DNA of 64,000 nucleotides from Candidatus Diapherotrites archaeon LH_S9 (GCA_023659865.1 JAGXON010000003.1:11896-75895); one strand, 5' to 3'. Shown: positions 62,132-64,000, numbered from the stretch's first letter. Notes: generated by a model not told the origin, from the sequence alone. Program-made: numbers and translations.

Positions 62132-62773
62132 TTACTCTTCCACAATTTCCTTCAGCTTTTTCAATAGTCCTGCGGTTGAGGGGCCAGGGCCCTTTCCGCT
62201 TATTATAGCCATCCTAGATCCGCTTGTATCCTCTTTTAGTGTTCTCATCAGTTCTTCCAGTTGTCCGTCTTCAAAATGGTCTCGTTTTAAGTAATTTCTA
62301 AGTGCTAGTATGTTCATAAGTTTTTTTGCTCCTTTTGTTGTTGAGCCTTTTTCAGTTATTGTGTTTGTAGCGCCTTGAACTATGTTCTTGAAGTCTTTTT
62401 CTTTGAGTAAGTTGTTTTCTTTCATTGTTTTCACGAGATGTGAAGCCTTGTTTACCACTCTCATATCCGAGCTGGCAAAGAGAATTTTGTCTGACAGTTC
62501 TCCTGACTTTTCTTCTATCAGGTCTGGATGAGTTTTTGCCAAAATTTCCAGCACGTTAATGTTCTTTTTCTGAATATCGCTAGGTTCATGCCCTAGTTTA
62601 TCTATAGCTGAGTCTCTTACTTTTCCAGCTTCTTCAGCATTAAACAGATATTTTGTTCTCCTAACTAATCTTTCTTTTTCTCTTAGTCCTGCTTTACCGA
62701 TGTCCTTGATCTTGTTAACATGATCTTCTAATTGTTCTCTCTCTTCAGCTTTTTTTTCTTCAAACAAAGGCAT
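62132..62773 (-). CDS. Charged orphan, paralog of 4245..5012, lying between scpA and scpB
   Basis: See the shared blocks listed for 4245..5012. Confidence 0.85.
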   Translation of the reverse strand: MPLFEEKKAEEREQLEDHVNKIKDIGKAGLREKERLVRRTKYLFNAEEAGKVRDSAIDKLGHEPSDIQKKNINVLEILAKTHPDLIEEKSGELSDKILFASSDMRVVNKASHLVKTMKENNLLKEKDFKNIVQGATNTITEKGSTTKGAKKLMNILALRNYLKRDHFEDGQLEELMRTLKEDTSGSRMAIISGKGPGPSTAGLLKKLKEIVEE

Positions 62774-62811: not shown

Positions 62812-63525
62812 TTAATTGTTCTGTTTTTCAGGTAGTGTGATGAATATTTCTTCGAAGTACTCGTCTTGCCATATTGCAACACGTTCATCGTTCGCCAGTT
62901 GGAGCAACGGAATAAAAGTCTTCAGGACCTCGAGCCGAGTGTCCTCCTCCAACAGATTTGAAAAACAAGTTATTCGCTCTCCATTCAACGAATTCTTTAC
63001 AGCTTCCTCTAACTCATCCAAAGGCTTGGCCAATTCCTTGATCTGATGCAGTTGATTTGTGTCAAACGATTTCTTGATTTTTTCTTTTTTCTTTTCTTGT
63101 TTCGCCTTGGTTCTGGCCTTTTTTTTCTGTTTCTCTATCACTGTTTCAACTGCGTCTATCAATTCATCGACGGTGACTTTTCTTTTCGTCACTCTTTTCC
63201 TGGCCTTTATTTCGGGGACGCGTTCGCCTTCAATGAAGTACTTCCAGTCCATCAGATCTTCTTCAGTTTCTTTCTTGTCCTGTTTTTTCTTGATTTGCCA
63301 GGTGTCGGACTTCATTCTTAGCAGGATAGAGCTCGCGAGAACAGCGTTTGCTGGAACGTGGAAATCGTTTTTTTTCATTGCCCGGATTTTTTTCAGGTAC
63401 TTTTCTGAGAGAACAATTAGATCTAGGTTCCAGGGGTCCATGCCCTCTTTTTTCACTGTCTGCCTGAGCAGGCTTTTCCACCCAGGTTTTTCTATCATGT
63501 CCACGAAAGTTGTTTCTTTTGGCAT
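62812..63525 (-). CDS. scpA: SMC-Scp complex kleisin ScpA
   Basis: MDPWNLDL, VLASSILLRMKS, VTVDELIDA, FIPLLQL and WQDEYFEEI. Confidence 0.9.
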   Translation of the reverse strand: MPKETTFVDMIEKPGWKSLLRQTVKKEGMDPWNLDLIVLSEKYLKKIRAMKKNDFHVPANAVLASSILLRMKSDTWQIKKKQDKKETEEDLMDWKYFIEGERVPEIKARKRVTKRKVTVDELIDAVETVIEKQKKKARTKAKQEKKKEKIKKSFDTNQLHQIKELAKPLDELEEAVKNSLNGERITCFSNLLEEDTRLEVLKTFIPLLQLANDERVAIWQDEYFEEIFITLPEKQNN

Positions 63526-63552
63526 AGGGAAACCCTTAAATATGTTTCTTAA

Positions 63553-64000
63553 GTGAACTACCGCTACCAAAATCAAGGATTTTGGAAGTGGTTTCCTGCG
63601 AGTGTTTGGACATTGGCTTGTGAGCGTATTCCGAACCTGTTTGTCGCAGCAAACCTCTCATGAAGGGAGATTGCTCGTCCACAGAGCGTTCTTGCGATAG
63701 GAAACGGTTCATTATGTTTACTGCAGAGTTTTTGTCTCTGTCCATGTTGTTTCCACAATCGCAGTCGATATTCCTTTCGTAGAGTGGTCTATTCTCTTTC
63801 TTACCGCAAACACAGCATGTTTTTGTAGTATTTGCTTCGTTGATTTCTATTACTTTTTTACCTTCAAGTTTTGCTTTGTAGGTTAGAAATCTAGCGAATC
63901 TGGATATTGTTCCTGTGTTTTGCAAGCTTCTATGTAGTGTTTTATCCCTCTTTCTGTCTTCTTTTTCATTACTAGCCATTTTTTTGACGTTCAAGTCTCC
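63553..64000 (-). mobile_element. tnpB: 3' part of an IS200/IS605-type element: TnpB C-terminus plus right end (truncated by the window)
   Basis: FLTYKA..G..V..INEANTTKTCCVCG..CDCG..MDRDKNSAVNI; right-end hairpin CCAAAATC-CTT-GATTTTGG followed by TAGTTCAC. Confidence 0.9.

Follow-up and report, generated by a model that had tools for sequence, protein, structure and literature searches.

A tnpB-only remnant of an IS200/IS605-family element very probably lies in the scpA promoter of Candidatus Diapherotrites archaeon LH_S9, where it is immobilised and encodes an intact TnpB with a relocated catalytic glutamate. The window, that is the whole 64,000-nt stretch of DNA that was analysed (C32:11896-75895), comes from an assembly of 671 kb in 38 contigs that is 66% complete, and its last positions fall inside tnpB. 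The element is fully delimited, with a candidate TAM (TTTAAC), a right end that finishes ...GTTCAC and a 141-nt omegaRNA model with covariation, and its family occurs widely among Asgard archaea, methanogens and brine-pool archaea. A TAM resembling an archaeal TATA box can land such an element in a core promoter, and the locus may be a natural example of dependence of an essential chromosome-segregation operon on transcription from a dead transposon. The features of the locus are listed in Table 1.

Table 1. Features of tnpB, the element end and scpA, in window positions
Feature	Position	Strand	Basis
tnpB, C-terminal 154 codons and stop	63536..64000	-	ORF lists, Pfam, phmmer, AlphaFold2, Foldseek
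Gly288 codon, canonical RuvC-II Glu position	63998..64000	-	Alignment, homologues, model
Glu342 codon, alternative catalytic Glu	63836..63838	-	Homologues, Fanzor2 alignment, model
Zinc finger, CxxC (349-352)...CxC (367-369)	63755..63817	-	Homologues
Asp376 codon, RuvC-III	63734..63736	-	Homologues; aligns with DRD of ISDra2 TnpB and Fanzor2
omegaRNA scaffold, ~141 nt	63553..63693	-	RNAalifold consensus, covariance model R1
Right-end terminal hairpin: outer stem CCAC/GCGG, inner stem CCAAAATC/GATTTTGG	63561..63591	-	Covariation among copies
Last 7 nt of the right end, AGTTCAC, at the position of the relatives' TATA heptamer	63553..63559	-	Alignment anchored on TATTTAAG
Predicted guide, TTAAGAAACATATTTAAGGG	63533..63552	-	Flank directly 3' of the right end
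scpA proximal promoter element, TATTTAAG	63535..63542	-	Identical in 6/7 relatives, TATATAAT in the seventh
scpA, 237 aa	62812..63525	-	Pfam PF02616; co-directional with tnpB

TnpB and its active site

The frame that enters the window at its edge starts GDLNVKKM, finishes ...SGSSLKKHI and matches Pfam PF07282 (Cas12f1-like TNB domain, 7e-20). The initial annotation, made from this fragment, raised the question of whether the part beyond the edge is frameshifted or lacks the RuvC-I aspartate. Neither is the case. The full gene (C32:75434-76756, L001:1640-2962, minus strand) begins with an ATG at C32:76756 that has an SD-like AAGGT on its 5' side, and it encodes 441 amino acids without a frameshift, Asp199 included. 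A Pfam search of the whole protein returned PF12323 (1e-9), PF01385 (8e-16) and PF07282 (3e-19), which is the domain order of TnpB: HTH_OrfB_IS605, OrfB_IS605 (WED/RuvC) and Cas12f1-like TNB. More than 1,100 database proteins match it, many of them annotated as InsQ/TnpB, and phmmer aligned residues 7-388 with TnpB of ISDra2 from Deinococcus radiodurans at 2e-18. The AlphaFold2 model (pLDDT 84, pTM 0.69) is disordered at residues 410-441, its best Foldseek matches are TnpB and Cas12f (E 1e-18), and it has the fold of ISDra2 TnpB (8exa, 8h1j; TMt 0.78-0.79).

The active site was examined in 121 homologues (54-77% identity), which come from genomes of MSBL1, Hadarchaeota, Asgard archaea and methanogens. 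The initial annotation had read a Gly at the usual RuvC-II Glu position and a Glu 54 residues later, followed by a zinc finger and the RuvC-III DRD, and all of this was borne out. The motifs are AFD199LG at RuvC-I, IIVG288DLN at the old RuvC-II position, INE342ANTTKTC, a zinc finger formed by C349CVC (349-352) and C367DC (367-369), and D374RD376 (374-376, in DRDKN) at RuvC-III. D199 is conserved in 121/121 homologues, position 288 is Gly in 121/121, E342 is kept in 120/121 with a gap in the remaining one, and D376 and all four zinc-finger cysteines are each kept in 120/121. The acidic RuvC triad is therefore complete (D199, D376 and, at the alternative position, E342), with each member present in at least 120 of the 121. 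Gly288 aligns with the Glu of ...AVEDLN in 9yyg, an AI-designed RNA-guided nuclease that is the best PDB sequence match by phmmer; the pairwise alignment to ISDra2 TnpB itself is locally offset at the RuvC-II motif. Glu342 falls on residue 467 of the mimivirus Fanzor2 (9b0l) in an alignment that is gap-free from query 330 and target 455; the E467A substitution in this Fanzor2 (ApmFz) abolishes cleavage (PMC10530073). In the model G288 lies inside beta-strand 284-289 (beta4) and E342 just after strand 336-341 (beta5), and the same relocation of the Glu, from beta4 to beta5, has been described in the RIIr clades (PMC10691335).

Rearrangements of RuvC-II fall into two major clades with eight large branches, several of them archaeal (PMC10691335). 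Proteins with the alternative Glu ("Ealt") have been split into a D-Phi-G clade and a DPG clade, the latter holding the Fanzors and the cyanobacterial IS607 pro-Fanzors; a Fanzor or pro-Fanzor is marked by a DPG motif at RuvC-I together with the alternative Glu and association with an IS607 serine recombinase (PMC10711439). The relocated-Glu group has also been called "TnpB2" and includes a biochemically tested archaeal enzyme, TvTnpB of Thermoplasma volcanium (PMC10530073). The rearranged class is recognised by a non-acidic residue (Gly or Pro) at the old Glu position and by a conserved Glu some 45-55 residues further on, six residues before the first CxxC; the protein studied here has both features, with Gly288 and, 54 residues on, E342-x6-C349. 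Its RuvC-I motif is DLG, with Leu in 118/121 homologues and no Pro among the residues counted (L, M, F, I). By the published motif criteria and its transposase association, on which this placement rests, TnpB belongs to the D-Phi-G group with the alternative Glu, a large catalogued class (TnpB2, RIIr, "Ealt"). Like other members of that class (PMC10530073, PMC10691335, PMC10711439) it is archaeal and associated with IS200/IS605 Y1 elements, and its omegaRNA lies at the right end. It differs from them in a second zinc knuckle that is CxC and not CxxC, in a truncated left end and in an ORF that reads through the right end; its probable TAM is TTTAAC, whereas that of TvTnpB is NTGAC (PMC10530073). 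As a nuclease it adds nothing new, since relocated-Glu TnpBs are already catalogued, tested archaeal enzymes among them. From its sequence we infer that it has nuclease activity, and should it prove active, its compactness (~410 ordered residues) and its A/T-rich TAM of 6 nt would make it one more candidate for genome editing.

The initial annotation went further and assigned the protein to the Fanzor clade, an assignment that has to be given up. The two kinds of protein do have in common the Gly at RuvC-II and a Glu placed six residues ahead of the zinc finger. For the C-terminal third, Fanzor2 of Acanthamoeba polyphaga mimivirus is the best-aligning natural protein: the last 160 residues match it at 2e-15, with GKLNV and VNEYLTTKTC of Fanzor2 opposite GDLNV and INEANTTKTC. 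However, that sequence alignment covers the C-terminal third alone, over the full length the canonical ISDra2 TnpB is at least as similar (2e-18), and Foldseek TM-scores are alike for Cas12f, TnpB and Fanzor2 (0.62-0.68). Fanzor2, a eukaryotic or viral protein, carries DPG at RuvC-I and is part of IS607-type elements. In contrast, the present TnpB has DLG, its element family has IS200/IS605-type hairpin ends, and the nearest relative element carries a Y1 tnpA and not an IS607 serine recombinase. It is extremely unlikely that this is an archaeal member of the lineage ancestral to eukaryotic Fanzors; the protein is "Fanzor-like" solely in the arrangement of its active site and stands outside the Fanzor lineage.

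Element ends, omegaRNA and mobility

The right end finishes ...GGTAGTTCAC, and its last base is position 63553 of the window, as initially annotated. The pattern ...CCAAAATC-NNN-GATTTTGG-NN-GNGG-TAGTTCAC is common to nine right-end copies of this genome, and beyond it they have nothing in common. The ending ...GGGGTAGTTCAC was found in seven near-identical copies of Methanohalarchaeum thermophilum HMET1 and in one copy of archaeon SCG-AAA382B04 (L098). Homology thus stops at the same base in more than 15 copies (9 here and 8 foreign) with unrelated flanks. The outer stem of the terminal hairpin has one A-C mismatch in the scpA copy and covaries among copies (CCAC:GTGG, CCGC:GCGG, CCCC:GGGG), and the inner stem is swapped for CTCACG:CGTGAG in Methanohalarchaeum.

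Left ends were compared in 12 copies in which this end is intact, seven from Methanohalarchaeum, one from SCG-AAA382B04 and four from this genome (contigs C11, C34, C33 and C35). They are preceded by TTTAAC (11/12) or CTTAAC, with left flanks that are otherwise unrelated, and they carry a hairpin resembling that of the right end, followed by the TATA-like TTTATATA. In SCG-AAA382B04, which holds the closest relative element, a gene for a 143-aa Y1 transposase lies between the left end and tnpB. Because a Y1 tnpA and this left-end layout are those of a classic IS200/IS605 element, TTTAAC is the probable target motif and TAM, although the comparison of copies by itself also allows it to be the first bases of the element. 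The family therefore has the left-flank motif and the similar hairpins at both ends that characterise IS200/IS605 elements, whereas the scpA copy has no left hairpin. It shares with the others the inner left-end sequence alone, from AAAGCTAC (C32:76977), and is without ~120 nt of the left end, hairpin included; no other such hairpin is found nearby. A tnpA or a serine recombinase had been named in the initial annotation as a possible companion of tnpB. Neither a Y1 transposase (PF01797) nor a serine recombinase (PF00239) has a match in the 66%-complete assembly. With its left end truncated and with no tnpA in the 66%-complete assembly, the scpA copy is, as far as sequence can tell, immobile, and this combination is what is new here.

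Several other copies were seen. The other two copies of the same subfamily in this genome (G000) are fragments. One (C34:26855-27288, L002) is decayed, its first 24 nt of inner left end being joined to tnpB codon 304 at a junction that is an internal deletion. The other (C33:7543-7895, L003) is decayed by frameshifts. At L003:1850-1853, on the same contig, a convergent 459-aa gene takes its stop TGA from the TCA of the terminal GTTCAC, so that the insertion clipped or replaced the native end of that gene. HMET1 (L091-L097) has at least seven near-identical full copies, along with 24 matches to Y1 transposases and dozens of motifs like the right-end hairpin, and its omegaRNA region is 84% DNA-identical to that of the small genome studied here, which suggests recent horizontal spread of the element among archaea of hypersaline sites. 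A second tnpB in this genome (C11:107454-108596, L015/L005, minus strand; 380 aa, 34% identical) encodes a protein that keeps the canonical RuvC-II Glu (IAVEDLN), lacks the alternative one and has lost its zinc finger by deletion. The left end of its element is ~80% identical over 220 nt to that of the copy with the alternative Glu, and both elements have the final 45 nt of the right end in common. These shared ends indicate that one transposon frame carries two TnpB classes in one genome.

The omegaRNA scaffold overlaps the part of tnpB that encodes the disordered C-terminal tail and finishes at the right end. With its relatives this region folds into a multi-helix RNAalifold consensus. A covariance model built from five sequences (R1) found full-length matches directly after tnpB in loci of Methanosarcinaceae, Bathyarchaeia and Heimdallarchaeota. 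In the R1 alignment 92% of cells are paired and 30 of the 44 pairs show a compensatory change, against a mean of 15 in shuffled and 7-11 in slid controls; the alignment was fitted to the model, which favours the structure, and the margin over the controls is large. With the family model the 141-nt scaffold of the scpA copy reaches 163 bits, a score that no other member exceeds. A search of Rfam returned no family for this region at E up to 1. In the relatives tnpB stops at a TGA within the terminal hairpin, 20 nt before the element end. The scpA copy is without this stop, and its ORF runs 17 nt into the flank. An internal omegaRNA promoter in the NIM codons (A[AC]ATAATG, ~24 nt before the scaffold) was considered and rejected, as no TATA-like sequence is conserved there; homologues in Methanosarcinaceae and Bathyarchaeia encode the Ile of NIM as ATC.

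The guide of a TnpB comes from the flank beyond the right end, and a match between guide and flank is trivial for any insertion. The guide initially annotated in front of scpA follows directly from the right-end boundary. It would comprise the first 16-20 nt beyond the right end, TTAAGAAACATATTTAAGGG at its longest, and so cover up to -27..-8 of scpA. The 16-mer has no second target in the whole genome at two or fewer mismatches; at three mismatches there are 11 matches besides its own site, fewer than the 18 of a reversed-pattern control. The sequence in front of the target at the element's own locus is GTTCAC and not TTTAAC. Since the right end finishes TTCAC, one mismatch from TTAAC, self-targeting is possible. 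The layout as a whole is that of ISDra2, in which the omegaRNA likewise overlaps the 3' end of the gene, the guide derives from the right flank and the TAM is the Y1 target motif of the left flank. It differs in that ISDra2 TnpB keeps the canonical Glu in beta4, and the two scaffold sequences are unrelated.

The scpA promoter at the insertion point

The ATG of scpA is at 63525, and the tnpB stop lies 10 nt upstream. The N-terminus of ScpA, MPKETTFVDMIEKP, matches MELDELVDMIEKP and MELDAFVDLIEKP of relatives. Because the residues before IEKP are kept as protein in these relatives (DVHDQLV...), the first ATG is the scpA start, and a reading in which TATTTAAG is the TATA box of a downstream start at Met10 was ruled out by the same residues.

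The state of the locus before insertion was approached through relatives. No tnpB match was found in the 11 scpA loci that were fetched from them. ScpA is 39-44% identical in the seven same-order genomes compared; in all seven a KaiC-like ATPase gene (70-74% identical in six of them) is divergent from the scpA match and, by its mapped start, 86-94 nt away. Their scpA promoters are built in a constant order: a TATA heptamer, exactly 10 nt, TATTTAAG, 3-12 nt and the ATG. The heptamer reads CTATAAC, GTATAAC, ATATAAC, CATATAC or CTATAAA in six genomes. The seventh, G009, keeps the spacing and reads TAACAAC with TATATAAT. The present genome keeps TATTTAAG and the 10-nt spacing, and AGTTCAC of the right end stands in the position of the heptamer. 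TATA-like hexamers peak at -31..-28 from start codons across this genome, and the right end finishes at -28 relative to the scpA ATG. The initial annotation took ATATTTAA for the scpA TATA box; this sequence is the proximal element, at -18..-11, and in the relatives the TATA heptamer sits exactly 10 nt upstream of it, so that identification was mistaken. From the conserved architecture of the same-order relatives the ancestral sequence at the insertion point can be tentatively reconstructed. No match to a conspecific empty or filled site was returned by an exact 23-mer search of metagenomes, and a ScpA-based metagenome scan returned distant relatives alone (at most 45% identity). Of a spacer of ~90 bases, 48 are left, 21 on the KaiC side and 27 on the scpA side, and this reduction indicates that the left-end deletion also removed host spacer.

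The bipartite scpA promoter (relatives' loci L023-L028 and L032; window 63526-63552) is strictly spaced, and its ATG is almost leaderless. A comparable proximal element, of the TTTAAA type, belongs to the divergent KaiC-like gene. Upstream of long ORFs in this genome the TATA-like hexamers at -31..-28 are accompanied by a G-rich SD-like signal at -10..-8, and the two signals point to a mix of leaderless and leadered genes.

The stretch from the scaffold to scpA is free of T5 runs. Together with the displaced TATA box and the tnpB stop only 10 nt away, this makes read-through transcription into scpA-scpB plausible, and the apparent displacement of the TATA box makes it more so. Alternatively, the A/T-rich flank TTAAGAAA, at -27..-20 of scpA, could serve as a substitute TATA box, and read-through would then be unneeded. 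The suggestion in the initial annotation that the element may influence scpA is a reasonable one on these grounds. The match of the guide to the scpA flank is in itself no sign of regulation, because any TnpB guide copies its own flank. A general preference of the element family for promoters was considered and set aside: 1/9 right ends in this genome, that of the scpA copy, lies within 30 nt upstream of a co-directional gene, and several adjoin the 3' ends of convergent genes.

Between scpA and scpB the window contains a 213-aa Lys/Glu-rich ORF (62132-62773, minus strand) without a significant Pfam match. The relatives' loci that were examined contain no match to it, and in them scpB comes immediately after scpA.

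History and present role of the locus

The following history very probably accounts for these observations. The element inserted into the ~90-nt divergent promoter region that separates scpA-scpB from the KaiC-like ATPase gene, at a point immediately 3' of the scpA TATA box, where the TATAAC of the relatives (an xTAAC end) resembles the TAM. The ancestral empty site would be expected to read xTAAC followed by TTAAGAAAC.... The last 141 nt of the element encode the omegaRNA scaffold, and the 16-20 nt beyond the right end would be transcribed as guide. A TnpB complex so programmed would recognise 5'-TTTAAC followed by the guide sequence, that is, the uninterrupted ancestral site, and its cutting of that site would be the usual route to transposon retention. 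A later deletion took ~120 nt of the left end, with the hairpin, the cleavage site and the TATA-like TTTATATA, and in the same event ~40 nt of host spacer. With its original TATA box lost, scpA now probably owes its expression to read-through out of the element or to the A/T-rich flank.

A possible, though doubtful, alternative is that the locus is a dead relic, whose ORF is open because the insertion is young, whose TnpB and omegaRNA are unmade or inactive, and whose neighbour scpA runs from a new promoter in the A/T flank. The deleted left-end segment held the sole TATA-like stretch of intact left ends, the terminal hairpin contains the A-C mismatch, the in-hairpin stop of the relatives has been lost and the ORF runs into the flank. 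The other two subfamily copies in the genome are fragmentary, and TTAAGAAA begins at -27, a workable position for a TATA box. All of this is consistent with decay. Conversely, 441 codons with every catalytic and zinc-binding residue are intact, the scaffold scores as well as the best family members, and the SD-like AAGGT still stands 5' of the tnpB ATG.

At the other extreme, TnpB and its omegaRNA might have been exapted to bind the scpA core promoter and tune scpA-scpB. TldR proteins are nuclease-dead, TnpB-like guide-RNA repressors that have lost RuvC residues and act in trans on target promoters beside a TAM. As with TldR, a TnpB-type protein is here paired with a guide that matches a host promoter; the guide covers the conserved TATTTAAG, and the element, unable to move, is confined between two conserved host genes. 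Unlike TldR, however, the present protein has an intact triad and zinc finger, and its guide matches the element's own flank, as any TnpB guide does by construction. Its target at this locus has GTTCAC in front of it in place of the TAM, 0/11 scpA loci of relatives have a tnpB match, which speaks against a conserved association, and the position just upstream of a co-directional gene is that of one right end in nine. Such a role is highly unlikely. A looser form, in which the stranded element has become part of scpA control by supplying the transcription of the condensin genes scpA-scpB, and perhaps by setting their dosage through TnpB-omegaRNA processing or binding, is unlikely. If it were true, the nuclease would still cut a restored, element-free promoter (TATAAC or TTTAAC followed by the guide sequence), the two effects combined would lock the arrangement in place, and the locus would represent TnpB domestication at an early stage, in a reduced genome of the DPANN type. 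An immobilised remnant with an intact relocated-Glu TnpB remains the preferred reading of the locus.

The deletion junction of this remnant has a feature of its own. Just outside the window, the ATG of the KaiC-like gene is 21 nt from the truncated left end (L001:3183-3207, C32:76977-77001), and a TTTAAAAAA run spans the junction, with CTTT contributed by the element and AAAAAATC by the host. This run may act as a TATA element in one or both directions.
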